Shown in pieces: positions 3,993 through 46,675 of a stretch of 64,000 bases of DNA. Position 1 is the stretch's first letter; the number at the start of each line of letters is the position of its first letter. The notes under the pieces were generated by a model, which was not told where the DNA came from, did no database searches, and saw only the letters and a program-made list of their open reading frames with translations. The position numbers and the translations under genes were made by a program. Source of the stretch: Ostreococcus lucimarinus (Eukaryota); the NCBI GenBank assembly GCA_000092065.1, contig CP000592.1; one strand, given 5' to 3'.

Positions 3993-4024
3993 ACATTAGA
4001 GCTGTTGTATGCTATAGTAGTGGA

Positions 4025-7000: not shown

Positions 7001-7798
7001 CGTGAGAATCACTGAACCGTTGTTGATATAAATCATCGTCTCGATCGAACCGCCGTGGCAGTCTTCATCGTCGCTCGACGCGTTTGCTCGCATTATTTTG
7101 TACTGAACGCGCCCATCGACCCAGATTAGTAGAGCGCCATACTCTGTGCTCGTCAAAATCATATCATTAAAGGGTAACTCCAACACGCACGTGATATTGG
7201 ACAGAGGTTCGCCGTTGAACTTTCCAAGAGTACCTTGTAACTTCAATCCAGTAAACGTCTTGACCATCTGCCAAAACTGAATGTGACCAGCGCCGTGAGT
7301 GATCATTCGCTCCGAGTTAGCGCCTAGGAAGGATAAGTCAAACACTTCTTGTCCATACGCTTTGGCACGAAGGACTGTCTTTGCTGTCTTCCAGTCCCAC
7401 AAAGTGAGCCAATAGTCTGGGAGCCCACTCACGCTCGCGAGAAGCTGTCCGTCTGGAGAAAATTTTCCAGTCGAGTAACACGCCGCGGCGCCGCCGTGAA
7501 TCGTGTTTACGAGCTCAAGTGAAGGGTAACTATATATTGATATTCGGGGCGCCGCACCATTCTCGCCGATCGCAATGTGCGTGCCATCTCCATCCACGGC
7601 GACCAAGCCGATATTGCCCCCCTCCGCGCTCCGCAGGTACGTCTGCCTTTGTGTTTTCACGTCTCGCAAGGTCAAGAGATTTCCAACAGTGTACGCCACG
7701 ACTGAATCGCGTACTCGAGTCAAGTTGCCCCGTCGCTTGAAATCAAATCCAAAGCTGCACGCCAGGCAACCATGCTCGAGAGACTTATTTTTAGCCAT
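4025..7798 (-). CDS. Cilia/flagella-associated WD-repeat plus coiled-coil protein (CFAP43/44/57-like)
   Basis: This is an uninterrupted 1257-aa ORF. The N-terminal half has WD/beta-propeller-type repeats (ISIYSYPSLE, YWLTLWDWKTAK, HGAGHIQFWQM). The C-terminal ~600 aa are heptad-rich coiled coil. Size and layout match axonemal CFAP WD proteins. The sequence is visibly AT-richer than its neighbours. Confidence 0.7.
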   Translation of the reverse strand: MAKNKSLEHGCLACSFGFDFKRRGNLTRVRDSVVAYTVGNLLTLRDVKTQRQTYLRSAEGGNIGLVAVDGDGTHIAIGENGAAPRISIYSYPSLELVNTIHGGAAACYSTGKFSPDGQLLASVSGLPDYWLTLWDWKTAKTVLRAKAYGQEVFDLSFLGANSERMITHGAGHIQFWQMVKTFTGLKLQGTLGKFNGEPLSNITCVLELPFNDMILTSTEYGALLIWVDGRVQYKIMRANASSDDEDCHGGSIETMIYINNGSVILTAGDDGWVREWNIDEIRRVISSQSKGVVCMKPISERSIDGANIRHICALENKLFIQDSGRGLVCSLDDDDMERPVVSAHSGVITACETSLNSTHLITCDNIGEVHCYDYLSRAFLYKSRFSCSATALTNVPLNVNEDGRCIVVGFADGVVRVLVRNTSSWRLALALKPHAHAVEQFTWSSDGEYLAIAAANNTVFIFSSSSFASTLQFEPIGFIRLSARPKKIFWDGESIFGAQIEDEMHCFAVHRDLGESRKDSYEIDVTPRITTDVETKNAVDESFSAITYDNSYCVKICKSGSFEVHALSDASPSNTHSSIDEALCIYPEVEAIDTLSAQCASIEEVLQRERAKELSEEEAAALIRLSSLVALCRDEFNVIIEENAKLPREMRISGAELLVDDTQMRRIREDSVHWLKATHDKLQSSVMCAESVSNQLQKSYYDKIMALPRMIHSSSEALTCSSFALRAGSEGDWQTTTVAEATVHECEQEMRVVHVQNTCISENAHERQSIEGSEMSSEARRRFERLRRNEELRKLEKAEPLKDQTDDSEALKRDNLGDGFPLRCVPDSRVPPEDKLTTEGKLSELRYVDGQLRGNQSRFNREFDCIDAKDAVTDEDLISLCHLKADIIARSKVIELFRIVVHRELSVMPEYDVKNTEMQNAQRQAKEEVETARAAVENAQTAVNDQQTKLEGQNGVKAEIEATFDKFMIPGVPRAALLKVFHKRVVNKTEQKSDKGDSDSDLDSDFDDDSYYSSSDEENGDTCPKGCDSAVYERVCDLRLQRIEAMDAITEIQRALDGKKKIHDAALKKLRSLEENVRVLERDADAFEKVKQQSLNGLRTAFVLPVSCVETSQGDMDDMIIFSKTRLAELENKVVEWDAEVLKLKRQQQELKREHSSLIAQRSAKAKEFQSLQRKYSETQIRKFGKLIVLEDLDKVVNNGQGTEDLRDKLKVQELENARELREIKKDISNVEREVLNLTEAHTTCLNELLALRSVKV

Positions 7799-7987
7799 AA
7801 CTTGAGAGGTGCGAGCAAACTCTGTTCAAGACTCACACGGGGCGATGCGATCCGTACGCGCGCGTGAGTGTATCGTGTGTGCGCGCGCGCGTTTGCTGTC
7901 ACTACTTCTTTTGCGCCACGTACGGCGTCGTCGAGTGCAGAATCATTTATGCTTGTATTACAAAATAACCGACGTCGGCTCGGGCGC

Positions 7988-9223
7988 TCACTTCCCCGAC
8001 ATTTCTGCGTTCAATTCAGCAAGCTTTTCTTCTTGTTCCAAAGCCTGCATGCCCCCGATCGCACCCTTGATGTCGCCGTCTAAGAAATTTTGAAGAGAGA
8101 AGTTAGCGCCGATGCGATGGTCCGACACGCGGCTATCTTTCCAGTTGTACGTTCTAATTTTTTCCGACCGAGACCCCGAGCCGACTTGCGATTTACGCTT
8201 GTCCGATACCGCTTTGCGCTGCTCTTCGAGCTGCAACTCAAATAATTTCGCGCGAAGAATTTGCATGGCACGAATGCGATTCTTCATTTGTGTACGTTCT
8301 TCCGTGCAGAACACGCGAATGCCGGTCGGCTTGTGCATCAGGTCGATAGCGGTTTCGACTTTGTTGACGTTTTGCCCACCCGCACCGCCGCTTCTGGCGG
8401 TGGAAATATCGAGGTCATTGTCGTCAATCTTCACCTCGACTTCGTCGACTTCAGGCATCACCGCGACCGTGGCCGTGGAAGTTTGAATGCGTCCTTGAGT
8501 TTCCGTCGCCGGCACGCGCTGCACGCGATGCACACCGGCTTCCCACTTGAGACTGCTGTACACGTCGTCGCCCTTTATCTCCACGACGATTTCCTTATAC
8601 CCGCCGGCGTCCGCCGGGTTGTTCGTCACGACCGACGTTTGCCATCCCTCGCGCTCGGCGAATCGCATATACATTCGATATAAATCCCCAGCCCAAATAC
8701 CAGCCTCATCCCCGCCAGTACCGGCGCGAATCTCGAGCATGATGTTCTTCTCGTCGAGCGGGTCCTTCGGCAGCAGCGCCAACGTCATGGTCTCCACCAG
8801 CGCATCACTCTCCGTCGTCAGCGCATCGATCTCTTCCTTCGCCATCGCCACCATCTCATCATCCCCAGCCGCATCCTTCGCCATCGCGCGCGCCTCGCTA
8901 ATCTCTTTCATGCACTCCTTGTACCGCGCGTACTGCTCCACCACGCTCGTCAGCTCCCCGAGCGCCTTGCTCAGCTTTTGAAACTCCTTCGGATCGCCCG
9001 TCACGCTCGGATCCGCCATGCGCTCGCTGATCTCGCCGTGCGTCCGCGTCGTCGCCTCGAGTTTTTGCACCAGAAACTCCGGAATGTCCACCGCGCGCGT
9101 TCGCACCCCTCGCCGCGTCGTCGTCGTCCCGCGCGCCGGCGCTCGTCCACCGTCCCGAGCGTTTTTCGCGCGCGCGTTCGCGCGCGACGCCGCGTTCGTC
9201 GCCGGCGACGCGCGCGCCATCAT
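7988..9223 (-). CDS. prfA: Organellar peptide chain release factor 1 (RF1-type)
   Basis: It carries the PxT anticodon tripeptide ([10 protein letters not shown]) and the GGQ motif ([11 protein letters not shown]). An R/A/T-rich presequence follows MMARASP (ATG 9223). The ORF is over-extended to 9688. Confidence 0.9.
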
Positions 9224-9557
9224 GTCGTCCGCGCGTCGTCGCGCGTTCGATCGAGCGAGCGATCGATCGCGCGCGCGCGTCCGCGAGTGTCGCGGCGCCG
9301 TCGCCCGACGCGCCCTGAGCGCCAAAACCCCGAGCCGTCGCCGTCCCCGACGCGCGCCGTCCTCGAACCCGAGGTCGGGTTCGGGCGATTCGGACGATTC
9401 GGACGGTTGGTTTCGGGCGCGCCGGTGGTTGATGGTTGACCGCGCGCGCGACGCGCGAGAGGACCGCGCGCGGACGACGACGACGGACGCGACGACGACG
9501 CGCGACGACGACGCGAGAAACGACGACGACCGACGGTAAAAGCGCGCGATCGACGAC

Positions 9558-10658
9558 ATGACGCCCGCGGTGACGCGCGAGGACGCGCGCGAGAAAGTCC
9601 CCACGGTGTCGCTCGAACTGTACGCGAAAGATTTCGAAAAGTTTGTCCACGACCTGGGAGAGGCGTACGAGCGATACGGATTCGTCATCTTGGAAAATCA
9701 TGGGATCGATCTGGAACTCATCGAACGCGCGATGGAACGCTCGAAGGCGTTCTTTGCGTGCGATGAGGAATGTAAGAAGAAGTACACGCTGCGCGGGTTG
9801 GGCGGCGCGCGCGGGTACACGGCGTTCGGAGTGGAGACGGCGAAGGGAGCGAACGCGCCTGGTGCGTGAAGGCGATGCGAAAAGTGATACTTTTTTGTTT
9901 TGATGCGTCGCGCTATAGCGCGTGTGATGGATTCGACGACGCGATTCGTTTGACTGACGCGAAGGATAACGTCGCCTCTCGCGCGCGCAGATTTGAAAGA
10001 GTTTTGGCACCTCGGGCGAGACTTGCCGGCGGGCCATAAGTACGAGTCGACGATGCCGCCGAATGTGGATGACGTGGTGGAAGTCGAAGGGTTTAGCGAA
10101 GTGAATAAGCAAATCTTCAACGCTCTAGATGAGCTCGGGAATTGCGTGCTCGAGGCGCTGGCGGTGCATCTGGAACAACCGCGCGAGTATTTCGCAGATA
10201 AGACGAACGAAGGCAACAGTATTTTGCGTATCATTCACTATCCACCAATTCCGCCTGATGCTGCGGGGCGCGTGCGCGCTGGTGCGCACGAGGATATCAA
10301 TCTCATCACGCTCCTGCTCGGCGCCGACGAGGGTGGTTTGCAACTCTTGGGAAAGGATGGAGAGTGGCTCGAAGTCAACCCGCCTCCCGGATGCGTGACG
10401 TGCAACATCGGTGACATGCTGCAACGCCTGTCGAATCACAAGCTTCCTTCGACGACGCACCGTGTCGTGAATCCTCCCGCGGAACGGGCGCACATTCCTC
10501 GATATTCCATGCCATTCTTTTTACATCCAAATCCAGACTTCGTCATCAAAACGCTGGAGTCGTGCATTTCGGATCAGTATCCCAATCGCTATCCAGAGCC
10601 CATTAGCTCTGATGAATACTTGCAGCAACGCCTTCGAGAGATTAAACTCAAATCATGA
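9558..10658 (+). CDS. 2-oxoglutarate/Fe(II)-dependent oxygenase (two exons: 9558-9861 and 9991-10658)
   Basis: The HxD...H iron triad is present ([18 protein letters not shown]). Intron 9862-9990 has a GTGCGT donor, a CTGAC branch and a CAG acceptor. It joins ...GANAP|DLKEFWHLG in frame (972 nt total). Confidence 0.8.
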
Positions 10659-10764
10659 GTCCAAACGGATACATTTAGCACGCTGAACGATGCACATAGA
10701 AATAATAGCGCTACGACAAAATTTCATTTTGTAATGATGATGGTACATTGATCACACATTATCA

Positions 10765-11424
10765 CTAGTTCACGAGGTGTGCCGCGATCGTATCGTCTTC
10801 GATGATAAGATTTTCCATTTGCGGTGTCTCGTCGGCTTCTATAGCGCGGCAGATGTGAGTTTTGATGTCAAACTCATCGAGAAATTCATGAACCGTGAAG
10901 AGAAACTTCCTAGCATTTGCGACGATGCGAGTAAGACATTTGTCCATATTCACCGTATTCGGCTCTGCGTTCTCGAGAAGCTCGTAAGTGATGCGCGCGA
11001 TCGCGTTGACGACTGCGCTTTCGTCATAATCTTTGATTTCGAGATCGCTCGCGCTCTTTCCTTCGCCGCTGCCTACGACAGTTTGCAGGTCACTGAATAC
11101 TCTTTCGACGCCCTCTTCCGAAGAACACACATACGACGTCCAACGGTGAGAACTCCTGAGTGACTTCAGCACGCAGTCAATTTTTTTCGATGTATTTTCT
11201 AGCACGAGCAACGTGGAAGACTCGTATCGAATCATCAATCCTGTGTTTCCACAAACGTCTGTGACGCGCGCCTCGAGAGACTCGGATTCCCCGGAATCGT
11301 CCTCTATCGACTGACAAAACAGGAACACTCGGCACAAATAATCTGCAGGGTCTGAGCTAGCGTTGCGCTCTAGTCTTTCTTTCGCCGCCAGAATCACCGC
11401 AGGATCGCAATCGAACGATACCAT
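10765..11424 (-). CDS. Hypothetical protein (219 aa)
   Basis: A clean ATG-to-stop ORF with non-repetitive composition. It sits in a tight tail-to-tail arrangement with the oxygenase gene. No family is assigned with confidence. Confidence 0.5.
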   Translation of the reverse strand: MVSFDCDPAVILAAKERLERNASSDPADYLCRVFLFCQSIEDDSGESESLEARVTDVCGNTGLMIRYESSTLLVLENTSKKIDCVLKSLRSSHRWTSYVCSSEEGVERVFSDLQTVVGSGEGKSASDLEIKDYDESAVVNAIARITYELLENAEPNTVNMDKCLTRIVANARKFLFTVHEFLDEFDIKTHICRAIEADETPQMENLIIEDDTIAAHLVN

Positions 11425-11466
11425 GATGGTTTCGCTAAAAATAAATCCAACGCCGCAGCAGCACGT

Positions 11467-12255
11467 TTAACGCGGAATGATGAAGAGTCTTTCGCTCGGT
11501 TTACGATTCTTCAGCGAGTGAAAGTAATACACGTCTCCTTGTATCGCGCCAAAATCACCTTCAAACGTCGTGTGAAGCTCTGGGACAGTAAGAAGTTCTC
11601 GCAAGGACTCGCTCGAAGTGTCCAACCAAGCCAACAACGCGCAGGAGTCCAGAGATAACCAAAGCACGTTGCGTTGGCTCATGCCTTTTTCGTCCAAACA
11701 CAATGTGGAGTCGCATTGGCATTTTCCTAGATCAATGGGGAAGTTTTCATCGTCCTTCGCCGGATACTCTTTCGCGTGAAACAAGATTCCGAGTCGAACC
11801 ACAGACGACTCGTTCGTCGCCCGCCAAGCAAACGCGTGCGCATGAAACAGATCGAACCGATTTAGCGACGTCGAGGAAGACGATGACGCTGTTTCAAATA
11901 ATTCGACCATGTAAGCGTTGCTCTTGCGATCGCGCATCCGTCGTCCGTATCGTTCTTGCGTCAACTCGCACCCTCGACTCGCCGCGTTCTCGACATTTGG
12001 CACCGCGCGGTGGCGCCAATGCAGCCCATCACCCCATACCCCGGGCGCACGTACCATCGCGCACGGCGCCGGAGGCACACGCACAATCTTTCGCACGCCC
12101 TCGATGTCGTTCGTTCCTCGCGCGAGCGCATCCAACAGCTTTTGCGCGCTCGAGCGCCGTCGCTCTTCGCTCGACCCATCGGCGCGCGCACCGCGGACGC
12201 GCACGACGCGCGCGCGCGGCTTCACCGAAATCCACGTGGATATCGTCATTTGCAT
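11467..12255 (-). CDS. Hypothetical protein
   Basis: The C-terminal ~200 aa are non-repetitive (NVLWLSLDSCALLAWLD, DVYYFHSLKN). ATG 12255 (MQMTIST) was chosen because the upstream part of the ORF overlaps the divergent F-box gene and is low-complexity. Confidence 0.45.
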   Translation of the reverse strand: MQMTISTWISVKPRARVVRVRGARADGSSEERRRSSAQKLLDALARGTNDIEGVRKIVRVPPAPCAMVRAPGVWGDGLHWRHRAVPNVENAASRGCELTQERYGRRMRDRKSNAYMVELFETASSSSSTSLNRFDLFHAHAFAWRATNESSVVRLGILFHAKEYPAKDDENFPIDLGKCQCDSTLCLDEKGMSQRNVLWLSLDSCALLAWLDTSSESLRELLTVPELHTTFEGDFGAIQGDVYYFHSLKNRKPSERLFIIPR

Positions 12256-16214: not shown

Positions 16215-18578
16215 ATGGTGATGGTAATCGCCCTGACGTGCGCGCTCGAGACGCCGAGAGGAGCGCGCGCGGGGAACGCGTTCGCCAGGCAAACGCCGGT
16301 CGGGGACTTGGGATTCCTCGGCGTGCCGGGACCGCCGGGAAGAAGCGGACACAAGGCGGTGGTGACGGATGATTCGCAAATGTTCATCTTCGGCGGACGC
16401 GCGAAGTCGACGAACGGGGATTTTTTGAACGACTTTTGGATGTACGACTGGGAGACGGGCTCGTGGGTGGCGTACACGCCAAACGAATTGTTGTGCGATC
16501 AGTGTTCAACGTGTCAGGACACGGGAGCAACGTGTTACGATTGGACGGGATTGCGACCTTATAGCGAGCCGACGCTGAAGGAAGGGAAAAATAGGAAGGA
16601 GCGTTCGATACCGAGCGGGCGAATCCATCACGGGATGGCGCTCACGCTCAACCGCGAGACTGGGATTCGGGATACCATCATCATGTATGGAGGCGAGAGC
16701 ATCGATTGCACTGATTACTGCGACGATGTTTGGCACTACAATATTCCGAACAATCTATGGAGCAAAAGATCCTTCACCGGACAGGAACAGCGACCCGTGA
16801 GACGATGGAAGCACGCCATGACGGATTACTACGACGCTGTCTTCTTATTTGGAGGACACTCGCAAAGATTACTCTCGACGACTGCGAATGCGGCGAACCA
16901 GACCAACGATACATCGTTTTATTACGACACTGATGTCGTTTATGACGGCACTAGGCCGTTATTCATGGAAGATCTTTGGGTTTACAACGCTACGAATCGC
17001 CAGTGGGAGTACCTCGAGCCTTCATGCACGACGTGTTCTAGTACCACGACAGAGAGTGACGGTACGGCGGACCGAGATTTATACGGCCCTCGTGGCCGAA
17101 CTGGTGCAAGCCTGGTGAGCTATGAAGACTCTTTGTACCTTTTTGGCGGCTACTCCTATGGAGGTGAATCAAACTTCAAAGAGCTGTATCCCGTACCCAA
17201 GAATGAAACGATCCGTCAGTTGCTGTACCCATCGCTGGAGAGTAAGTATTTTCTTAACGACCTTTGGCGGTACGACATTTTGACAAACTCTTGGACTGAG
17301 TTAATGCCGAGAACAAATTACACTGCGAAACCTGAGCGGAGGCACGGACATTCTGCCACAGTTGTGTTGAAAGATTCTGTCGCGGTGATGCTCATTCAGG
17401 GAGGTCGCACGTGGGAAGACGAAATCGGAGATATGTGGCAGTATAACATTTCATCCAACGTGTGGACTGAGATCGTTCCAGAAGGTGATTATCCCTCACG
17501 ACGAGAAGGATCGACAATGGTCTCTGTTGGTCAGACTTCGACATTTAGATCTGGTTCATCACGTCAGGCTGGTCGCGCGTTGATATTCGGAGGTCATGGT
17601 TGTCTGAAAGGCAAGACATATGCTGAAGCTGTGGCCGCTGCAGCCGCTGCAAGTACGGGTACGGTCGGTAGAACATATGTGGACGATCTTTCTGGGGTGA
17701 CTGTGGACTGGCAAAGCAAGTATAGTGTAACTACGACGGGTAAGCTTGTGATAAACGGCGTGACGATGGAAGACGCCAGCGATCCTACATTTTTGGCTGT
17801 TGAAGATGGAACAACACAAGTGCAAACAGTCACGAGCTATGGTGAGACGGTTTGTACTGAAGAACTCAGTGATCTTTGGCAGTATCTTCCAGATGAATGC
17901 CCGAACGATTGCAGTCGATCTGGTACGTGTAGCTTCAACACGTGCATGTGCTCAAAAGGGTATTACGGCAACGATTGCTCGTTGCCAGAGTGTCCTCAGT
18001 CAAATTGCACATTTGATAGCGTTGGACGTAAAATGGTGTGTAATCACTGCAGTGGCCGAGGTGAGTGTAGTAACGGTGTGTGCGTGAACTGCGCTTACCC
18101 GTCGAGTGGCACCTATTGCGAAATTAAAGTTGGTTTGTGTACGACATGCGAGTGTTACGAAGACAACGGTGAAGAACCCCCGGAGGGCTTGGACTGTGGT
18201 TTGGTGTTGGTTTGCCCGAAGAATCCTTCTGTTCCAAGTTCTGCAGAGTGCTCGGGCAACGGTATTTGTGTAGAAGGCGTGTGTAACTGCTATCCTGGGT
18301 TCACTGAAAGCATGGTGGTTACTCGAGTCGGCGACGCTCGATTTCCTGCCAATCTCGACGTGAATGGCACAGTTGTTCCCGCCCCAGAATGCGGTTATGA
18401 TGAGACGGCGCCCAACAAGTACAACAAAGCTCTAGTGACAGATGCGTGTATACCGACGTACATCAAAGATTGTGGTGACTTTCTGTACGAGATGGCGGGT
18501 TCAAGAAGGACTGCTGGACTCGGCGTCGCCGCACTCATAGCGATACTGACGTTTCAAGCATTGGTCGACCTCGGGTAA
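16215..18578 (+). CDS. Type I membrane protein with Kelch-type beta-propeller repeats and EGF-like Cys-rich modules (attractin/MEGF8-like)
   Basis: A signal-like MVMVIALTCALE is followed by repeated GH..V....MFIFGG / LYLFGG / LIFGG kelch signatures. EGF-like modules read CPNDCSRSGTCSFNTCMCSKGYYGNDC and CSGRGECSNGVCVNC. The C-terminal TM segment is GLGVAALIAILTFQALV. The start is uncertain (ORF open from 15780). Confidence 0.72.
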   Translation: MVMVIALTCALETPRGARAGNAFARQTPVGDLGFLGVPGPPGRSGHKAVVTDDSQMFIFGGRAKSTNGDFLNDFWMYDWETGSWVAYTPNELLCDQCSTCQDTGATCYDWTGLRPYSEPTLKEGKNRKERSIPSGRIHHGMALTLNRETGIRDTIIMYGGESIDCTDYCDDVWHYNIPNNLWSKRSFTGQEQRPVRRWKHAMTDYYDAVFLFGGHSQRLLSTTANAANQTNDTSFYYDTDVVYDGTRPLFMEDLWVYNATNRQWEYLEPSCTTCSSTTTESDGTADRDLYGPRGRTGASLVSYEDSLYLFGGYSYGGESNFKELYPVPKNETIRQLLYPSLESKYFLNDLWRYDILTNSWTELMPRTNYTAKPERRHGHSATVVLKDSVAVMLIQGGRTWEDEIGDMWQYNISSNVWTEIVPEGDYPSRREGSTMVSVGQTSTFRSGSSRQAGRALIFGGHGCLKGKTYAEAVAAAAAASTGTVGRTYVDDLSGVTVDWQSKYSVTTTGKLVINGVTMEDASDPTFLAVEDGTTQVQTVTSYGETVCTEELSDLWQYLPDECPNDCSRSGTCSFNTCMCSKGYYGNDCSLPECPQSNCTFDSVGRKMVCNHCSGRGECSNGVCVNCAYPSSGTYCEIKVGLCTTCECYEDNGEEPPEGLDCGLVLVCPKNPSVPSSAECSGNGICVEGVCNCYPGFTESMVVTRVGDARFPANLDVNGTVVPAPECGYDETAPNKYNKALVTDACIPTYIKDCGDFLYEMAGSRRTAGLGVAALIAILTFQALVDLG

Positions 18579-18818
18579 ATCATTACTACTAGAAGCTAGC
18601 AAACCATAATGTGATGAATTCTCGAAACTTAGAAGATTTTGACCCCTGCACGAGGGAGATTCGTCGTGCACGTCGCAGCGACCCGCTCGAGACAAAGATT
18701 GCCTAGCACCAAAGCAACAGACGTCACAGTGTGAGGGGCGGCGAAGCGCTAGCGCCGCGTGTGTGACTCGATAAAGACGAAAGAGTCGGTCTCGCACAGT
18801 CCTTAGCCTCACGCTGCG

Positions 18819-19742
18819 ATGACGACGCTGGAGGCGAGCTCTAACGAACGCCGCGCCGGCGCCGCTGAAACGATTTCTGAACAGCTCCTCGTTGAGGAAC
18901 TGGTGTCGTCGGAGTCCGAGGGCGACAACGTTCGCTCGGTTGACATACAAGCCATTGCGCGTCGAGTGCAGCGAGCGAATAGGACTCTGTCCGCTGAAAC
19001 CGCGGCCACGATCAGTGGAGAGCAGGAAGAGAAACTTGCCCTCGCTGCAGTGCATCTTTGGCGGGCAAAGATGCACGTGCGGCTTTCAAATCTTTACTCG
19101 GAGAAGGCCTGGGATAGCAAAAAGTTTCCACGTAAATTTTATTTGAAGTACAGGGGCTTCGGACCGACACATCAGCGTAGCGACTTGGTTGAATTTAGAA
19201 AGCTCTACTTGCGGTGTGCGTTATCCAGCTCCGAGCGTGCCGTTGAATTGGCACCGTTCTCCTACGAATGCGTGATGTTGAAGGCATGCATATTGTGTCT
19301 ACTCATTAGTTTCGGAGGATATATGCGCGACATTTACTGCGAGAAAGCGTTGACGAGTTGCCGGCGAGCAATGTCGCTGCACCGCATGCCGCAAATTGCC
19401 GACAACAGAGAAAGAGCCATCCTGTACAACTCTACGCAAGATAGAACGAGCGCGCAGGCGACGGAATCAAGCCGATCGGATGCACGTATGGCGTCCTTGT
19501 GGAATATGGCCATTTTCGCCGCTCACACAGTCGCGACGAAACGAGGGTCTTGGGATGCGGATACGTTGTGGGCTGACAGACAAAATTCACTCGGTTCAGG
19601 CACATCGTGTGAGCTGCCATCAGGCGATTTACCGACGAGCTCGCTCGAAGAACTCGTTTCATGGAACATGTGGGGTAATAATTGGACTGGTTTGGGAGAG
19701 AATAGCACGCTGCAGGATGTACTCGCTGACTGCAAGGAATAG
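18819..19742 (+). CDS. Hypothetical protein (307 aa)
   Basis: An ATG-to-stop ORF with non-repetitive, AT-richer sequence. No family was recognised. Confidence 0.45.
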   Translation: MTTLEASSNERRAGAAETISEQLLVEELVSSESEGDNVRSVDIQAIARRVQRANRTLSAETAATISGEQEEKLALAAVHLWRAKMHVRLSNLYSEKAWDSKKFPRKFYLKYRGFGPTHQRSDLVEFRKLYLRCALSSSERAVELAPFSYECVMLKACILCLLISFGGYMRDIYCEKALTSCRRAMSLHRMPQIADNRERAILYNSTQDRTSAQATESSRSDARMASLWNMAIFAAHTVATKRGSWDADTLWADRQNSLGSGTSCELPSGDLPTSSLEELVSWNMWGNNWTGLGENSTLQDVLADCKE

Positions 19743-20285
19743 ATAGATATCTGATTTAATTTAGATGTATTATTAGTAGCACTCATTTTCGATCGATACG
19801 CGCATCATCGCGGAAGTTCGACAGGATCGCAACAATAAACTCTTGTATACATTTTATCCCGTATTTTCGATCGAAATCAAGAGCAAAACGCATCGTGCCA
19901 AGGTACAAATACAAATTAAAGTTTGGGCGATGGTCAAAATAAATAATTTAATTCAACAGCTATCGGCGAATAAGTCGCCGAAAGAGATCTCAATGAAGCC
20001 ACGGAGGCGAACTTCTCCTCGTATTGTCAGACTGACGCTTGTAACGCTGATTCTCCGCGTCGTCGTGCATTGAGGCGTCGATATGAGCGATCGAGTTGTT
20101 AATTATTCTCACCTGACGAACATTAATTAAAAAAGTAATTCCGATCTTCGTGTTATCGAGAATCGCACGTCAAATCTCGATGCAGACGCCCACGAACGCA
20201 CGTCAGCGACGATAGCGCAAAAAACTTAACGGAAATGACGGAAACGGGCGAAGGAGTAAAGCAATTACTTTCGATATTTATTTAA

Positions 20286-40290: not shown

Positions 40291-41598
40291 ATGCAGCGAC
40301 GCGAGCGCGCGTTGTGGTCGTTAGAACACGCGCTGTCGAGCCCCGAAATCCCGCTCGACGTCAAGGTGGAGGTGAAAAACGCGTGCGCGGCGTCGCTCGA
40401 CGACGAGACGCTGGCGTCGTGCGATTCGCTCGTCGTGCGATTGTTTGACGTTTTATCCCGCGCGCGCGATGCGTTGATCGCCGGTGAGGGCGCGATGCGA
40501 GGAAACAGCGCGCGCGCGTGCGCGGACGCGCTGCACGCGGTGACGACGCGACGCGACGCGCCGGAAACGCTGAAAAGGAGAGGGAAAGACGTCGTCGAGG
40601 CGCTGCGCGGCGAGTGGTGCTTCGCGGCGGCGAGAGAGACGCGGAACGAGGGAGGGACGAGCCCGGTGCGAGGATGGAAAGCGATGGAGAATTTTTGGAT
40701 GCGGTGGCGAACGCTGACGATCGGTGACGGAGGGCTGGGCGATGGGAGCGCGTTGGGAACGAAGGCGAAGAGGACGTACGACATGGTCGAGCGCGCGGAG
40801 AGCGATATGCGGTTGCCGAGCGACTGGGAGAGTCGCGTGCCCACGGCGGAGGATATAGCGCAAGATTTACAAACGTTGTTCACAGATCTGTGCGAAAGCG
40901 GTGAATTGATGAGTTTCTTGAGCGTCGTGAGGAACGATATCTCGAGCGGGAGGTACAAGGTGCAGGTGAGAGGAGACGGGCGCGTGGCGCGGCAATCGGG
41001 CGCGATGACGGATTCGATTGGACTCGAGCCGCACCTCGAGGGATTGGGTCGAAAGCTCAGGGCGGAGGCGACGAGACACCGACAAGAACCGCCGTTAGGT
41101 GCTCTAACCGCCGTGCCGGAAAGCTTTTCCTCGCCGCCGAAGCGCGTACACATAGCGGCTCAACGAAAAAAGAACGCGCGAACCGTGGAGTGGGATTCGC
41201 AAAACGACCAACCAGACGACAACGACAAAGAAGAAGAAGACAAAGATGAACACGAAGATATCGCGCCCACACAGCAAACCCCTCGCGCAAAGCCATCACC
41301 ATTAACCAATTTATCTTGGGAAGAGGTCGGATACCGCACGCCACGCGCGAATCTACCCGCCATTTCGCCGGCGCCCAGGGCTGCGCTGAAATCGCCGTCG
41401 ACGCGCAAGAAGCTTCACGTGAAGGTGAAGTGGACGGACGCCGAAGTCACGTGTTTGCACCTCGGCGTGCAAAAGTACGGCATTGGGAATTGGGCGAAGA
41501 TTTTGAACGATCCGACGCTCACCAACGGCTTTCACACGTCTCGCACCGGCGTGCATTTGAAGGACAAGTGGCGCACGATACAACGACAAGCGCGTTGA
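40291..41598 (+). CDS. Myb/SANT telobox protein (TRF-like telomere-repeat-binding candidate)
   Basis: A C-terminal single Myb repeat, KWTDAEVTCLHLGVQKYGIGNWAKIL...TGVHLKDKWRTIQ, carries the telobox LKDKWRT. Confidence 0.7.
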   Translation: MQRRERALWSLEHALSSPEIPLDVKVEVKNACAASLDDETLASCDSLVVRLFDVLSRARDALIAGEGAMRGNSARACADALHAVTTRRDAPETLKRRGKDVVEALRGEWCFAAARETRNEGGTSPVRGWKAMENFWMRWRTLTIGDGGLGDGSALGTKAKRTYDMVERAESDMRLPSDWESRVPTAEDIAQDLQTLFTDLCESGELMSFLSVVRNDISSGRYKVQVRGDGRVARQSGAMTDSIGLEPHLEGLGRKLRAEATRHRQEPPLGALTAVPESFSSPPKRVHIAAQRKKNARTVEWDSQNDQPDDNDKEEEDKDEHEDIAPTQQTPRAKPSPLTNLSWEEVGYRTPRANLPAISPAPRAALKSPSTRKKLHVKVKWTDAEVTCLHLGVQKYGIGNWAKILNDPTLTNGFHTSRTGVHLKDKWRTIQRQAR

Positions 41599-41650: not shown

Positions 41651-42571
41651 ATGTCTTTTTTCACCGCCGCCGTGCGCCGCGTCGTCAATCATCGACGTCG
41701 CGCTCTCACGCGCGCGTTTTCCGATCACGCGCGCGTCCTCGCCCACGAAGTCCACGGCGCACCGTTCGGTTCAAAAGTCGATGCCGATGCGTCGTCAACC
41801 ATCTTCATCTTACACGGGCTCTTGGGCGCGGGCCGAAACTGGCGCAGTTTTGCGAAACAGTTGCGGCAGCGCCTCGGCGAACAAGATTGGCGCGTGGTTT
41901 TGGTGGATCTGCGCGGACACGGCGCGAGCGCGAGCATCGGGCAGCGGACGCCGGCGTGCGGCGTGGTGGAGGCGGCTCGGGACGTCGACGCCCTGGCGAA
42001 GATGATCGGGACGGCGCCGAGCGTGGTCGTGGGACACAGCTTGGGAGGGAAAGTCGCGCTGGAGTATTCAAAATTGGCGACAACGGCGCCAAAGCAGACG
42101 TGGTCCTTGGATTCGGTGCCGGGGAGAGTGGAGGCGGATCCCCACGGCGTCGCGGAGGTGTTGTCGGCGATTCGAGCGCTGCCGAGGCGCATACCCAGCC
42201 GCAAGTGGCTCGCGCAGGCGCTACCACAGTTCTCCACTGAGTTGGTGGATTGGATAGGGAGTAATTTGAAAAACGTGTGCGATGGTGGGAGTGAATTAGA
42301 GTTAGTTTTCAACCTCGATACCGTCATGCAGCTTTACGATTCATATCAAAAGACAGACAGTTGGCACGCCATCGAGGACGAGGCTTCTGGCATTTACGTC
42401 GTGAAGGCGGAAAATAGTACGCGCTGGAGTACGGCATGCGTCGAGAGGTTGAAAAGGTCGCCGGCGAATTTCCAAGTGCTAGCAAATGCTGGTCATTGGG
42501 TGCACACCGACAATCCAAACGGGTTGCTCGAGATTCTCACGACGTCCATTCCGAAAAGTAGACAACTATAG
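41651..42571 (+). CDS. Alpha/beta hydrolase, ABHD11-like
   Basis: Motifs present are IFILHGLLGAGRNW, the nucleophile elbow GHSLGG and the catalytic His in NAGHWVHTDNP. Confidence 0.8.
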   Translation: MSFFTAAVRRVVNHRRRALTRAFSDHARVLAHEVHGAPFGSKVDADASSTIFILHGLLGAGRNWRSFAKQLRQRLGEQDWRVVLVDLRGHGASASIGQRTPACGVVEAARDVDALAKMIGTAPSVVVGHSLGGKVALEYSKLATTAPKQTWSLDSVPGRVEADPHGVAEVLSAIRALPRRIPSRKWLAQALPQFSTELVDWIGSNLKNVCDGGSELELVFNLDTVMQLYDSYQKTDSWHAIEDEASGIYVVKAENSTRWSTACVERLKRSPANFQVLANAGHWVHTDNPNGLLEILTTSIPKSRQL

Positions 42572-42605: not shown

Positions 42606-45245
42606 CTAGGTCAACACGTCTATGGATGCTCGACACGTCGGGCATCGTAATGCATTTCGAAGAGAACAGAGTAAGCACGAGGCGTGGAATATGTGCGAGC
42701 AGTCTGTGCGAATCAATTTTTCATTCGTTCGACATTCGTTCAAGCAAATGGCGCACGTAGTACATTCCACGTCTTTGTCAGCGACGTACGCGCGCTTTGC
42801 GATCTCTCGTAACGTCGTGTCTCTGCGATCACGCTCGACGTCTTCAGCAGTAGTGTACAAAAGTCGGTCGCTCTCCCAAAGATTCGCTCCGAATTGTCGC
42901 GCGTCAGCGGCAAATAGATTCGAATCCGTCGCGGTCAAGTCGGCGCCAAAACGTGGTGTTCCGTCGCGAAAAAGCGCCGAATCGCTCGCATAGAGATGTG
43001 CATCGGGATAGAGATTCGAACGATGAGACACTCCGGCGATAATTCCCAATCTACTCGCAATATCTAGCAGAACTTCCGCATCGAGCGCAGCGTAAGTGAT
43101 CTGGGCTTGCGCGAGTGGTCTGGCATCCCAGTTGCTTCGCTGACAGCGCTTATCGAGCGCGTATCCGAGCGTTTCGGAAACGATGGAAGCCAACGAGTTC
43201 ATGACATCGCCTTGCAAGTCGATGACGTTGGCGTCCTGAAAACAGCCGGGTAGAGGGCTCGAGGACGACGACGGATATGACTTGCTCGCGACACGAAGTC
43301 GTTTCCAGTCTTGCTCTGGGGCAAACGCAATCTTTTTCATACCCGATTCACCGAACACGTCTGCGATGAATGTAGACATCCGCGTCCGTTCGATTCGTAA
43401 ACAATCGATGACGAATGTTTCGCAATTGTGCACTGGAGAAATTTGGAGCGTTGAAATCGGTCGCGGATCACGCCATTCGCAATCAAATGCGAAGGCGTCA
43501 CAATGTGGCGACGCAAGAACTTCTTTGATTCGCTCTAATCCGCACTCGTCTTCCACGACGATGATTCTCTTCTTCGGCACCAGGAGGGGAAGTTCAGAAG
43601 AAATTGTCATACTTTGAAGGTTTGCGTCGACGTCGAGAAACTCGTCCGGCGCGCGAAGATCAAATGTTTCGCGCAACGTTTCGCGCGTCAAAGCGTACGC
43701 CTTTGCCTCCAACCAGTCGCCTCGATCCATTAGATCGTCCAAAACTGATATTTCCATGCACTCCACGATCGCATTGCTGGCAATCGTCGTGATGTCGTTT
43801 TCCCACGTGTCCACCAAACGTCGCGCCACTTTTGACACGGTCTTTGAATCCAATGTGGCAATGGCTTCGTCCAATCCCGCGAAAATTGGTTGCCTCCACG
43901 ACTCGACGCGTCCTCCAAGATCAGCTAAACTTACCGCTGTATGTGCGACTGAGGTGGGATCGCTCGCATCGATGGCGCTGCACATGCGTTGCGCAAAATC
44001 CGTGACGCTCTCAAGCGCTCGAGACGTTGTCGTCATCGTCTTGGCGTCTGTTATTTCGAGAAGCGCCGCGATATCATTCAACTCACGGCAGTTGGTCTCT
44101 TCGCACGCACGCACGATGGCAGATACAATTTGATCTTCCGTAAACATCATCTCGCGATCCTTCATCGTCGTGACGAATGTTGAAACCGATCCGCAAATGT
44201 CAAACATTTGTCGCGACGTCACTGAACTCCACGCGCCGTTGTCCATCGCGCTCGCGACGGCGGAGGCTAAAATCCTACACGCAGTTCTACGCGCCTTCTC
44301 TTCGCGAACGCGCACACGATCGGATATTCCACAGTCACGGAGTCGCACACCCACCAAAGCTCGCAATATCGATAAATTGCCATCGTCGTCGGCGACGCCC
44401 GCGAGTGTCTCCGCGGCGCGCGAAGAAACATCCGGCTTCTCCCCGCTCACCGCAATGGCTGTCTCAGCACGCAATATCTTCGCCACTAACTCAACCATGG
44501 CGTCACTTTCGACGTCTTTCGACAATCTTTGGTCCCGCAACAACGTCCCAAACTCCTCCCACGCCGTCTCCGCGTCTTTTTCTCGCTTCTGCTTCGCCGC
44601 CGCTTTTCGCTCCAGCGAACGATCAATACCGTCGGGATTATCCCACGACACTCCTTTATTCAATCGACTAAAATTGCCTCGACGAGATTCCCTCGTCGAC
44701 ACCCCCCGAGCCGGTTCGTTCGCCACCTCATCCGGAAAAAATCGCTCATCCAGGTCGCCGTACTTTAAGCCGTCCGAGTGCGACGCTCGAAAATTCCACC
44801 ACGTCGTCTCTCGCCGCTCGGCTTCCTCGATCGCCTCGATCGTCGCCCTTTCGCAGTGCGACAGCGCTAACGATCGCACGCTTTGTCCCTTATTATTCAC
44901 TATTTTCACCTTTGCCCCGCGCTGCAGCAGGTACAGCACGACGTCGTCGCGACATCGCGTCGTCGCGTAAAACACCGCCGTCTTTCCGTAGTTGTGTCGC
45001 CCCGTGCTGATCTGATCGATCGCCCCTCCCCTCTCCAGCACGCACTTCACCACGTCGAGCGACCCTCGCCACGCCGCGAGGTGCAGCGGCGCCTTCCCGG
45101 ACCTCGCCGCGCGTCGCGCGAGCAATTCGTCGTCGCCCTCGGGTCGCGCGTCGAGCCACTCGCGCAGACCGTCGACGTCGTCGGCCACGAGCAGGCGCTG
45201 CGGCACGCACGCCTCGGCGCGTCGCGCGCGGGCGACGATGGGCAT
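42606..45245 (-). CDS. Ankyrin-repeat, DEDDy 3'-5' exonuclease (WRN-exo/Mut-7-like) and RING-H2 fusion protein
   Basis: The ankyrin region reads GKAPLHLAAWRGSLDVVKCVLERGG...TAVFYATTRCRDDVVLYLLQRGA. Exonuclease motifs are AFAFDCEW, KIAFAPEQDWKRL and YAALDAEVLL. The RING-H2 is CAICLNEC....CSHIFHASCL...CPTC. ATG 45245 (MPIVARARR) is used. The track ORF to 45851 runs antisense through the BolA gene. Confidence 0.8.
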   Translation of the reverse strand: MPIVARARRAEACVPQRLLVADDVDGLREWLDARPEGDDELLARRAARSGKAPLHLAAWRGSLDVVKCVLERGGAIDQISTGRHNYGKTAVFYATTRCRDDVVLYLLQRGAKVKIVNNKGQSVRSLALSHCERATIEAIEEAERRETTWWNFRASHSDGLKYGDLDERFFPDEVANEPARGVSTRESRRGNFSRLNKGVSWDNPDGIDRSLERKAAAKQKREKDAETAWEEFGTLLRDQRLSKDVESDAMVELVAKILRAETAIAVSGEKPDVSSRAAETLAGVADDDGNLSILRALVGVRLRDCGISDRVRVREEKARRTACRILASAVASAMDNGAWSSVTSRQMFDICGSVSTFVTTMKDREMMFTEDQIVSAIVRACEETNCRELNDIAALLEITDAKTMTTTSRALESVTDFAQRMCSAIDASDPTSVAHTAVSLADLGGRVESWRQPIFAGLDEAIATLDSKTVSKVARRLVDTWENDITTIASNAIVECMEISVLDDLMDRGDWLEAKAYALTRETLRETFDLRAPDEFLDVDANLQSMTISSELPLLVPKKRIIVVEDECGLERIKEVLASPHCDAFAFDCEWRDPRPISTLQISPVHNCETFVIDCLRIERTRMSTFIADVFGESGMKKIAFAPEQDWKRLRVASKSYPSSSSSPLPGCFQDANVIDLQGDVMNSLASIVSETLGYALDKRCQRSNWDARPLAQAQITYAALDAEVLLDIASRLGIIAGVSHRSNLYPDAHLYASDSALFRDGTPRFGADLTATDSNLFAADARQFGANLWESDRLLYTTAEDVERDRRDTTLREIAKRAYVADKDVECTTCAICLNECRTNEKLIRTDCSHIFHASCLLCSLRNALRCPTCRASIDVLT

Positions 45246-45370
45246 GCGCGCGCGCGCGGTCGCGAGGCGCGACGACGACGGCGCGCGCGCGCGCATGCGT
45301 GTGACGACGTCGCGAGCACAGACGGCGAAACAATTGGATTCGCCGAGGACGCACACGTCGTCGCGCGCGC

Positions 45371-45604
45371 ATGAGCTCGACGCGCGAGGTGCGCGAGCTG
45401 CTCGAGCGCGCGTTCGCGCCGTGCGCGGAGCTGGACGTCGTGGACGTGAGCGGGGAGTGCGGGAGCGCGTTCGAAGTGCGCGTGGTGAGCGAATCGTTTC
45501 GAGACAAGAGTCGGATTGAGAGTCATCGCGCGATTCACGACGCGCTGGGGAGCGTGATGGGAAAGATACACGCGCTGAGCGTGAAAGTGGCCAAGGCGCC
45601 GTGA
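45371..45604 (+). CDS. BolA-like protein (77 aa)
   Basis: The sequence VDVSGECGSAFEVRVVSESFRDKSRIESHRAIHDALGSVMGKIHALSVKVAKAP matches the BolA signature (..F.G.....H R.....L....IHAL.). Confidence 0.8.
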   Translation: MSSTREVRELLERAFAPCAELDVVDVSGECGSAFEVRVVSESFRDKSRIESHRAIHDALGSVMGKIHALSVKVAKAP

Positions 45605-45673
45605 ACGAGGCGCGACGTAGGGGCGCAGAGGATCGTGATGGACCGTTGTTATGGAATGAATGTTGGCTACGAA

Positions 45674-46675
45674 TCAACGCACGGCGAGAAATTTCTCGAG
45701 TTTGGCCACCATCACGGGAGGCCAACGACGTATGCGCGTGACGTAATCGATATCGCGATATTTGGCGCAACCACTCTCGCGCGAACACGCTCGTTCCCAC
45801 GCATCTTCGGCGTCTTCGAAGCGGGCCGCTGAATAATATAAAGCGGCGCACGCCGCGCGCACGTCGGCGCTGTTCGGCGCGCGGCGGACGAGAGATTCGA
45901 GCTGTTTCAGCGCTTTATCTTCGTTTCCAAGCTGAGCTTCGGCGAGGGCAAGGTTGGAGAAGGCGTAAATAGCGCCGTCCAGGCGTTGCGTCGTCGAGGC
46001 GCCGACTTTGAAGCCGCGCGCGCCTTGGAAAAGATTCGCCGCGCTTTCGTAGTCATCCTTTGCCTTGTCCCAATTTCCGAGCGAGCCGTGGACGTTACCT
46101 CTAGAGTTCAAAACGTACGGATCCGGCGCGAATCCCGAGACTTCACACAACCGCAACACCTCGTCATAGTCGCGCAGGGCGTCCCGGAAGCGGTACACTC
46201 CCTCCAGAGCTAACGCCCTTCCCGCGAGAACGCGCGCCGAAGCGCTCGCATCGCCTTCGCACATCGCCACGGCCTCATCGTACGCTTTCAACGCATCGTC
46301 AAACTGTTTCGCGTCCACGCTCACCGTGGCCTTGGCCTCGATCCACCGCAGCTCGTTCGGCTCGGCTCGGCGCAGGGCGTCCAGCGCGTCGAGAGCGCGG
46401 CTAAAGTCTTGCACGTCGTACGCCTCTACCAACGCGCGCTGTAATTCGTCGATGCTCTCAGATGCAAACGCGCGGGAGTTTGCGCGCAACGAGCAACAGA
46501 ACGCGCCGATGACGGCGCTTCGGCGCGTCGTCGTCGTCCCGGAAGTGCTCGGGACGTCATCGGTCGGTGCTTTGAACCGTCGCGTTTGGTTTTGTCCACG
46601 TTCGGGGCGCGCGTCGGCGCGAACGCAGCGCGAAGACGACGCGATGATCGGTGTCGCGCTATACGAAGCGCGCAT
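45674..46675 (-). CDS. TPR-repeat protein with presequence
   Basis: Several 34-aa TPR-like units are present (ALKAYDEAV, ALRDYDEVL, AKDDYESAANL, ALKQLESLV). A conserved C-terminal YRDIDYVTRIRRWPP motif follows. Confidence 0.68.
   Translation of the reverse strand: MRASYSATPIIASSSRCVRADARPERGQNQTRRFKAPTDDVPSTSGTTTTRRSAVIGAFCCSLRANSRAFASESIDELQRALVEAYDVQDFSRALDALDALRRAEPNELRWIEAKATVSVDAKQFDDALKAYDEAVAMCEGDASASARVLAGRALALEGVYRFRDALRDYDEVLRLCEVSGFAPDPYVLNSRGNVHGSLGNWDKAKDDYESAANLFQGARGFKVGASTTQRLDGAIYAFSNLALAEAQLGNEDKALKQLESLVRRAPNSADVRAACAALYYSAARFEDAEDAWERACSRESGCAKYRDIDYVTRIRRWPPVMVAKLEKFLAVR

Follow-up and report, generated by a model that had tools for sequence, protein, structure and literature searches.

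Gene content of the locus

We analyzed a window of 64,000 nucleotides from Ostreococcus lucimarinus CCE9901 (contig CP000592.1). On its minus strand, positions 42606–45245 hold a complete coding sequence: a single exon of 879 codons plus a stop codon (42606–42608), continuous and free of introns or interruptions. The start ATG, at 45245, lines up with the "MPxVARA" N-terminus shared by the orthologs described below. A longer mechanical reading frame of 1081 residues, reaching position 45851, was dropped as a GC-rich artefact running across the BolA gene on the opposite strand; the conserved methionine is the one at 45245. No entry of the protein collection is identical to the 879-residue sequence; the gene model deposited for O. 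lucimarinus may therefore differ.

The neighboring genes all lie on the plus strand. The BolA-like gene (45371–45604, an exact match to XP_001420644) is separated from the 879-residue gene by a divergent spacer of exactly 125 bp (45246–45370), the distance given in the preliminary description. BolA adjoins the orthologs of our gene at orthologous loci too, and is thus a conserved neighbor. At the other, RING-encoding end, an alpha/beta-hydrolase gene (41651–42571, an exact match to XP_001420641) converges on the 879-residue gene across a gap of 34 bp, and is preceded by a Myb-like gene (40291–41598, an exact match to XP_001420640). We used these two genes as synteny anchors.

Domain architecture of the 879-residue protein

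We assigned domains with a Pfam scan and consulted the full-length AF2 model, which has a mean pLDDT of 86.4. The preliminary description had read ankyrin repeats, a WRN-exo/Mut-7-type DEDDy exonuclease and a RING-H2 finger in one protein of ~880 residues. Pfam matches within the single 879-residue reading frame agree with this, and every motif it quoted is present. Weak matches to ATP-cone and HTH_RNase_II fell below the cut-off and were discarded.

The ankyrin-repeat domain occupies residues ~16–145 (44811–45200, minus strand) and comprises about three to four tandem 33-residue helix-loop-helix repeats; the Ank_2 match covers residues 49–115 (E 5.8e-9). It is followed by a conserved acidic/aromatic motif at residues ~146–204 (44634–44810, minus strand) of the form W-x-N-[FY]-R-x-x-H-S-D-G-x-x-Y-G-D-L-D-x-R-F ... 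S/T-R-x-S-R-R-x-x-F. Five of its residues (N151, G163, D164, D166 and R168) are invariant across a 40-sequence family of ankyrin-exonuclease proteins; AF2 confidence is reduced over the motif (pLDDT 57–82). Next comes an all-alpha, HEAT/ARM-like solenoid of ~330 residues (~205–540; 43626–44633, minus strand), opened by the basic helix RKAAAKQKREK. We detected no specific similarity between this solenoid and solved structures. Neither the post-ankyrin motif nor the solenoid had been recorded in the first reading of the sequence, and the same is true of the RING's past as a small gene of its own, described below.

The exonuclease domain spans residues 563–733 (43047–43559, minus strand), where DNA_pol_A_exo1 matches with an E value of 6.8e-18. 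It has the RNase H-like alpha/beta fold of the PF01612 / IPR002562 class and carries the elements of a DEDDy 3'-5' exonuclease: the ExoI D-x-E is D588/E590, in FDCEW (587–591); the ExoII aspartate is D646, in EQDW (644–647); and the ExoIII Y-x3-D is Y718/D722, in YAALDA (718–723). On alignment, all of these residues, the acidic ones implied by the preliminary description included, are invariant in 12 Mamiellales orthologs and in the wider 40-sequence family. The exonuclease is therefore intact in its catalytic residues and, judging from them, apparently active. In sequence it comes nearest to the Nibbler EXO domain (E 1.3e-9, compared to 0.015 for WRN), and Nibbler is also its nearest solved relative. 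By these comparisons it belongs with the Nibbler/MUT-7/WRN-exo/EXD2 subgroup of DEDDy enzymes, and is closest to Nibbler/MUT-7. A MUT7-C domain was sought in the protein at E values up to 1 and gave no Pfam match; the C-terminus is instead made up of a linker and the RING. The scan also returned no helicase, HRDC or DNA-binding domain.

The linker is disordered and contains three L[YW]xSDxxL[FY] motifs (DAHLYASDSALF, ADLTATDSNLF and ANLWESDRLLY) in residues 748–800 (42846–43004, minus strand). pLDDT is below 50 across most of residues 740–798 (segments 740–760, 762–770 and 778–798). One helix sits between the motifs and the RING-H2 finger, which occupies residues 830–872 (42630–42758, minus strand; zf-RING_2, PF13639, E 3.4e-9). 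Its CAICLNEC...CSHIFHASC...CPTC motif (831–871) follows the C3H2C3 pattern C-x2-C-x14-C-x-H-x2-H-x2-C-x10-C-x2-C, with Arg872 directly after it. The zinc ligands C831, C834, C849, H851, H854, C857, C868 and C871 are conserved in 11 of 11 RING-bearing sequences (the window protein and 10 orthologs). At least 90% of the sequences in the ortholog alignment share L835, P869 and R872; these occupy the position after Cys2, the proline before Cys8 and the arginine after Cys8, which we take to be the "linchpin" that activates E2~Ub. The domain aligns with the RINGs of RNF4, Hrd1, gp78, Arkadia and RNF38, "CPTCR" included, and RNF4 is the best match. With this canonical pattern, the RING-H2 finger is a candidate E3 ubiquitin ligase module.

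Orthologs and the wider ankyrin-exonuclease family

The direct ortholog in O. tauri, XP_003082295.1 / Q00Y10 (876 residues), is collinear with the 879-residue protein and is labelled only "Ankyrin repeat". It shares a 90% cluster with P0007, a protein of full architecture and matching length; the exonuclease-RING architecture is therefore already present in public databases. Our literature search found no paper on the O. tauri protein, and nothing relevant on Ostreococcus proteins combining exonuclease, RING and ankyrin repeats or on the combination of YbaK, ankyrin repeats and exonuclease. O. tauri and metagenomic lineages of matching synteny, at least nine in number and ranging from 49% to 60% GC, keep the fused reading frame. 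The orthologs are 49–61% identical to the 879-residue protein, whose reading frame is under purifying selection over its whole length.

Beyond this clade, the ankyrin-exonuclease module is present in Micromonas, a diatom and many metagenomic proteins. The M. pusilla CCMP1545 ortholog XP_003058095.1 (C1MQA7) shows 31% identity over residues 15–727 and has the same invariant residues, and it terminates just past ExoIII, with neither linker motifs nor RING. No RING module was found within about 10 kb of its gene, and none in any of ~28 more distant ankyrin-exonuclease proteins. Six of the distant relatives (P0021, P0017, P0026, P0030, P0033 and P0037), at 26–32% identity to the 879-residue protein (alignment A2), carry an N-terminal YbaK/tRNA_edit domain. 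By association, these domains weakly hint at tRNA 3' ends as substrate.

The coupling of exonuclease and E3 module, called unusual in the preliminary description, does prove to be so: among 351 fetched proteins, which included the best 150 of 1837 matches in a representative library of 1.84 billion proteins, exonuclease and RING occur together in the direct ortholog clade only. A word-indexed search with the last 337 residues returned just six fragments, uninformative on other exonuclease-RING architectures.

Origin of the C-terminal RING module

Residues 748–879 match stand-alone proteins (tblastn E 1e-12 to 7e-27, 30–38% identity), and these matches begin at nucleotide 43004. The last ~135 residues of our protein, motifs and RING together, correspond to nearly the full length of free proteins of 150–200 residues. 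Such stand-alone RING-H2 proteins occur in marine metagenomes (P0152, P0166, P0169, P0221, P0224, P0202, P0223 and P0247) and are 29–41% identical to residues 736–879 (alignment A4). In the numbering of that alignment, L23, L35, D39, L42, L54, D58 and L61 are invariant in fused and free proteins alike, as are all the RING zinc ligands. The linker of residues 748–800 is the N-terminal half of the formerly stand-alone gene.

The position of the free gene is also informative. In a related metagenomic picoalga (loci L010/L011), a stand-alone RING gene on the plus strand (6001–6561) is followed by an abhydrolase gene and then a Myb gene, both on the minus strand. This is the order and orientation found in the window, and the two neighbors are 39% and 38% identical, respectively, to their window counterparts. 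P0221 thus sits at the syntenic position of the C-terminal part of the fused gene. In the window, the junction between exonuclease and RING is short and contains no methionine from which the RING part could be started separately, and the GC composition of the gene runs across it without a break.

On the strength of these alignments and gene orders, the 879-residue gene is an in-frame fusion of an older ankyrin-exonuclease (~735 residues) with a small RING gene. The absence of the RING from M. pusilla and from the ~28 distant proteins makes it a lineage-specific fusion, which appears to have arisen in the lineage of Ostreococcus and its lower-GC relatives; the lack of any RING module within about 10 kb of the M. 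pusilla gene excludes a simple read-through of neighbors there. Outgroup parsimony favors fusion over fission. The small RING gene would once have adjoined the abhydrolase gene, with the exonuclease gene later becoming joined to it, in frame, upstream.

Possible functions of the fused protein

What could such a protein do? We favor, with some reserve, a fusion-born ankyrin-solenoid exonuclease with a tethered RING, in which the exonuclease acts on free 3' ends and the RING ubiquitylates a nearby protein or the enzyme itself. Using two-metal catalysis, the exonuclease would strip nucleotides from such ends. Its substrate would more likely be single-stranded RNA than DNA, since its top sequence match, the Nibbler EXO domain, is specific for single-stranded RNA (PMC11347159), and may include tRNA-type 3' ends. 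Positioning of the substrate or a partner would fall to the ankyrin repeats and the solenoid, while the tethered RING would recruit E2~ubiquitin and modify either the enzyme itself or a protein bound to that substrate. The two proteins probably already cooperated before they were fused, perhaps through the SDxxLF motifs.

The single domains are ordinary; the value of the gene lies in their linkage. Nucleases covalently linked to an E3 ligase seem to be rare, and such an enzyme would be a compact model for nucleic-acid end processing coupled to protein ubiquitylation. The fusion, documented by position, also predicts that two uncharacterized families cooperate: the ankyrin-exonucleases and the small triple-motif RING ligases. 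This partnership is testable in O. tauri, which is genetically tractable.

The main rival to this reading places the enzyme at DNA ends. Like WRN-exo or EXD2, it would resect or proofread 3' ends at sites of damage or stalled replication, and the RING would ubiquitylate chromatin or repair factors. We regard this as unlikely: the exonuclease matches the ssRNA-specific Nibbler domain far better than WRN, the Pfam scan found no helicase or DNA-binding domain, and the relatives bear tRNA-editing rather than DNA-repair domains.

Alternatively, the RING could be regulatory only, serving the auto-ubiquitylation and turnover, or the dimerization, of the nuclease, with no link to a protein on the substrate. 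Auto-ubiquitylation is common among RING-H2 ligases, and RNF4-type RINGs work as dimers, so the RNF4-like RING of our protein would suit such a role, as would the flexible, disordered tether seen in the AF2 model. However, the same module is also found by itself, as a conserved small protein with a conserved triple motif. This speaks for a separate function with specific partners, and we consider a purely regulatory RING rather improbable.

The preliminary description had offered small-RNA or quality-control pathways as examples of where such a protein might act. The second of these may be its role. In a bolder reading, which we put forward as speculation and consider improbable, the protein would serve RNA or translation surveillance in a eukaryote lacking RNAi. 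The exonuclease would act on 3' ends of tRNA or other RNAs, as hinted by the YbaK domains (aminoacyl-tRNA editing) of distant relatives, and would couple the removal of a faulty end to ubiquitylation of the bound protein by a dedicated small RING-H2 ligase with three SDxxLF motifs. Read in this way, the fused gene could serve as a "Rosetta stone" for an algal pathway not yet described.

The small-RNA proposal, in which the enzyme would trim Argonaute-bound small RNAs like Nibbler/MUT-7 while the RING marks Argonaute or a cofactor, fares worse and we hold it to be very improbable. The relationship to Nibbler speaks for it, as does a helical domain placed ahead of EXO, as in Nibbler (PMC11347159). 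However, no specific match to a solved structure was detected for that helical domain, the MUT7-C domain found in most members of the MUT-7 family (PMC11347159) is absent here, and RNAi genes, Dicer and Argonaute, are reported lost in O. tauri (PMC9871001). That a MUT-7/Nibbler-like exonuclease persists in a lineage reportedly lacking RNAi points to an older role of these enzymes, apart from small RNAs.

Finally, that two adjoining genes are merely read through by chance, through an error of gene model or assembly, is scarcely credible: the RING part does form a gene by itself in a related picoalga and the exact protein is missing from the collection, but independent assemblies from at least ten lineages keep the frame intact at 49–61% identity, the annotated O. 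tauri protein among them, and the short junction retains no start codon.

Comparison with known systems

The closest characterized enzymes are the DEDDy 3'-5' exoribonucleases of the MUT-7 family: Nibbler in Drosophila and Aedes, MUT-7 in C. elegans and human EXD3. In contrast to these, the 879-residue protein lacks MUT7-C, begins with ankyrin repeats and ends in a RING; no specific similarity to solved structures was detected for its helical domain, and its host lineage is reportedly without RNAi. Compared to WRN exonuclease, EXD2 and RNase D, to which its sequence is less similar than to Nibbler, it has no RecQ helicase, HRDC or transmembrane anchor.

Among uncharacterized proteins, M. pusilla and the wider ankyrin-exonuclease family (for example, "Exonuclease mut-7" of Seminavis robusta) share homologous ankyrin repeats, motif, helical region and exonuclease. 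These proteins end after ExoIII, whereas ours continues into linker motifs and RING, and several distant members add the N-terminal YbaK/tRNA_edit domain. The stand-alone RING-H2 proteins have the three L[YW]xSDxxL[FY] motifs, the helix and a RING-H2 with "CPxCR", as in the fused protein. They differ in being free genes, each with a start codon, and some have insertions inside the RING.

RNF4, Arkadia, RNF38 and Hrd1 have the canonical RING pattern in common with our protein, and "CPTCR" with Arg872 aligns (E about 2e-8 to single RNF4 RINGs). Outside the RING they are unrelated to it, and it has neither SIMs nor transmembrane domains. ANKZF1/Vms1, an ankyrin-containing, tRNA-cleaving ribosome quality control factor, offers an analogy only: the eRF1-like VLRF1 catalytic domain is absent from the Pfam scan of our protein, and the likeness consists of the ankyrin repeats and a possible link to tRNA 3' ends. 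If the fused protein does act in surveillance, its nuclease and ligase would divide the labor in a manner loosely analogous to Ltn1 and ANKZF1 in ribosome quality control.

A DEDDy exonuclease and a RING-H2 module in one uninterrupted frame

The preliminary description had read ankyrin repeats, a DEDDy 3'-5' exonuclease and a RING-H2 finger in a single protein encoded at window positions 42606-45245 (minus strand). This observation is borne out in every detail: every motif quoted is present, and Pfam found all three domains, Ank_2 (residues 49-115, E 5.8e-9), DNA_pol_A_exo1 (residues 563-733, E 6.8e-18) and zf-RING_2 (residues 830-872, E 3.4e-9). The gene is a single ORF without interruption (879 codons plus stop), and its start Met at 45245 lines up with the 'MPxVARA' start that its orthologs conserve. 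Lengthening the ORF to a GTG at 45851 (1081 aa) was rejected, as it crosses the BolA gene on the opposite strand in very GC-rich DNA. This mechanical frame (42606-45851, minus), antisense to BolA (45371-45604, plus), is a spurious long frame in a ~75% GC stretch; along the window, GC content in 2-kb bins (for example 4001-8000, 10001-12000 and 18001-20000) varies from ~0.48 to 0.68.

The 125-bp spacer reported between the gene and BolA is exact, with the BolA start at 45371; the other end of the gene converges on a hydrolase gene across a 34-bp gap. An exact-sequence look-up of four neighbouring ORFs returned identical Ostreococcus lucimarinus CCE9901 proteins for three: the Myb-like protein (XP_001420640), the alpha/beta-hydrolase (XP_001420641) and the BolA-like protein (XP_001420644). 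The TPR-protein ORF at 45674-46675 (minus) encodes 333 aa and occurs in the same exact form on ~600 contigs; the deposited O. lucimarinus model (XP_001420804), only 196 aa, looks truncated.

A full-length AlphaFold2 model (mean pLDDT 86.4) placed ankyrin repeats at residues ~16-145, a lower-confidence segment at 146-204, a high-confidence all-alpha solenoid at 205-540, the exonuclease domain at ~555-735, a disordered stretch at 740-798 (pLDDT mostly <50), a single helix at 800-816 and the RING at ~825-879. Exonuclease and RING are joined by a flexible tether with conserved short motifs. Residues 146-204 (44634-44810, minus) carry the motif W-x-N-[FY]-R-x-x-H-S-D-G-x-x-Y-G-D-L-D-x-R-F and, after it, a basic S/T-R-x-S-R-R stretch. 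The motif matched no known domain and stays invariant between Ostreococcus and the remotest aligned members of the Ank-exonuclease family (proteins sharing the ankyrin, motif, helical and exonuclease part, with or without a RING), a diatom one among them; N151, G163, D164, D166 and R168 are invariant throughout the family alignment.

The catalytic and zinc-binding residues are intact in the alignments. The DEDDy residues D588 and E590 (FDCEW), D646 (EQDW), and Y718 and D722 (YAALDA) are invariant when the protein is aligned with its Micromonas ortholog and ten orthologs that have the RING, and likewise in a 40-sequence alignment with distant relatives; the predicted two-metal active site is complete. 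Relatives in the PDB were Nibbler (E 1.3e-9), EXD2 (E 8e-6), RNase D (E 5e-5) and WRN (E 0.015). The RING has canonical RING-H2 spacing, C-x2-C-x14-C-x-H-x2-H-x2-C-x10-C-x2-C, with all eight ligands kept in every aligned sequence that has a RING, and it aligns with the RINGs of RNF4, Hrd1, gp78, Arkadia, RLIM and RNF38. The Arg that follows the last Cys serves in RING ligases to activate the E2~ubiquitin conjugate, and the 'CPTCR' of RNF4 aligns with the same residues here. Judged by sequence, the finger's zinc-ligand pattern is complete, and the residues flanking it are conserved in the way usual for active RING-H2 ligases.

An apparently rare, conserved fusion

Coupling an exonuclease to a RING had been called unusual, and the survey agrees: among 351 compared proteins, including the best 150 of 1837 hits, the two co-occur only in this protein's clade. 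The fused frame is kept in O. tauri (876 aa, XP_003082295/Q00Y10, annotated 'Ankyrin repeat') and in nine or more metagenomic lineages (49-61% identity) that share its gene order (HisPhos, TPR, BolA, the fusion gene, hydrolase, Myb, on to ATG16 and eIF3m). These include lower-GC relatives (49-53% GC), whose N-terminus was cut by a prokaryote-style gene caller and whose ankyrin part was recovered by tblastn. This retention rules out an assembly or read-through artefact and shows purifying selection on both predicted activities.

On one lower-GC contig (L016), the ankyrin-coding start (7507-7770) and the remainder of the gene (7818-10271) lie in different frames ~47 nt apart, which suggests a short intron or frameshift absent from O. 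lucimarinus. Some picoalgal proteins, in the clusters of P0166 (member P0296) and P0003 (member P0438), carry the NCBI labels 'hypothetical protein N9L76_05600 [bacterium]' and 'MAG: ... Candidatus Nanopelagicaceae bacterium', indicating eukaryotic contigs mis-binned into bacterial MAGs.

Probable origin of the fusion

With the C-terminal 341 residues as query, HMMER searched 1.84 billion representative proteins exhaustively and uncovered small proteins of 150-200 aa matching the linker and RING alone. They align over nearly their whole length with residues 748-879 (30-38% identity, tblastn E 1e-12 to 7e-27), and a joint alignment gave a common design: three L[YW]xSDxxL[FY] motifs (here DAHLYASDSALF, ADLTATDSNLF and ANLWESDRLLY), a helix, and a RING-H2 ending CPxCR. 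Marine metagenomes contain one of them, P0221, in abundance. On its contigs (L010-L013, 61% GC) the 186-aa RING gene is followed by an opposite-strand alpha/beta-hydrolase gene and a Myb-domain gene, homologs of the window hydrolase (tblastn, 39% identity, E 6e-32) and the window Myb gene (tblastn, 38% identity across the Myb domain). Since the neighbours are the same, the free-standing gene stands where the Ostreococcus gene has its RING end.

The exonuclease part also occurs by itself. Micromonas pusilla CCMP1545 XP_003058095 is orthologous to the N-terminal 727 residues (31% identity), stops a few residues past the ExoIII motif and lies in a different gene neighbourhood, with no RING module within ~10 kb; among ~28 Ank-exonuclease proteins that are more remote, not one carries a RING. 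No Met is left at the fusion junction. The simplest reading of these sequences is that, in the lineage leading to Ostreococcus, a small RING gene already in place became the in-frame 3' part of the exonuclease gene.

On another metagenomic contig (L007), a free-standing RING gene (1277-1873, plus) has as its divergent neighbour a gene for a 356-aa ankyrin-repeat protein (152-1222, minus), which gave no tblastn match to the fusion protein's N-terminus at 1e-3; the pairing may be coincidental or functional.

Probable function and relation to known systems

The enzyme would trim or degrade free 3' ends. Single-stranded RNA is the more likely substrate, because the EXO domain of Nibbler, its nearest relative, is ssRNA-specific (PMC11347159). 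A role in DNA repair, in the manner of WRN-exo or EXD2, would be compatible with the fold data and is the less likely reading. Several distant family members carry an N-terminal YbaK/tRNA_edit domain (PF04073): P0021 (residues 34-137, E 1.6e-14), P0017 from the diatom Seminavis robusta (residues 154-228, E 1.2e-5), P0026, P0030, P0033 and P0037. This domain works on aminoacylated tRNA 3' ends, an independent, faint hint that the family might act on tRNA 3' ends. Ubiquitylation by the RING would be directed at the nuclease itself or at a protein associated with its substrate. That the two were fused suggests that Ank-exonuclease and small RING protein cooperated already before joining.

Public databases already contain this exonuclease-RING architecture in the O. 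tauri entry, but under a name that refers to the ankyrin repeats only; we found no paper mentioning it. The present analysis newly recognises the gene as a fusion, describes a family of stand-alone RING proteins with the triple motif, and adds evidence from gene position. Chiefly, these results offer a functional connection, open to experiment in a tractable alga, between two protein families that are so far uncharacterised.

Among known systems, MUT-7/Nibbler resembles the protein in its EXO domain. It differs in that Pfam finds no MUT7-C here, the C-terminal domain that occurs in most MUT-7 homologs (PMC11347159), and we therefore do not file the protein as a MUT-7 family member. That absence, and the reported lack of Dicer and Argonaute in O. 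tauri (PMC9871001), make the small-RNA role first proposed unlikely. The protein genuinely belongs with DEDDy exonucleases, RING-H2 fingers and ankyrin-repeat proteins alike.
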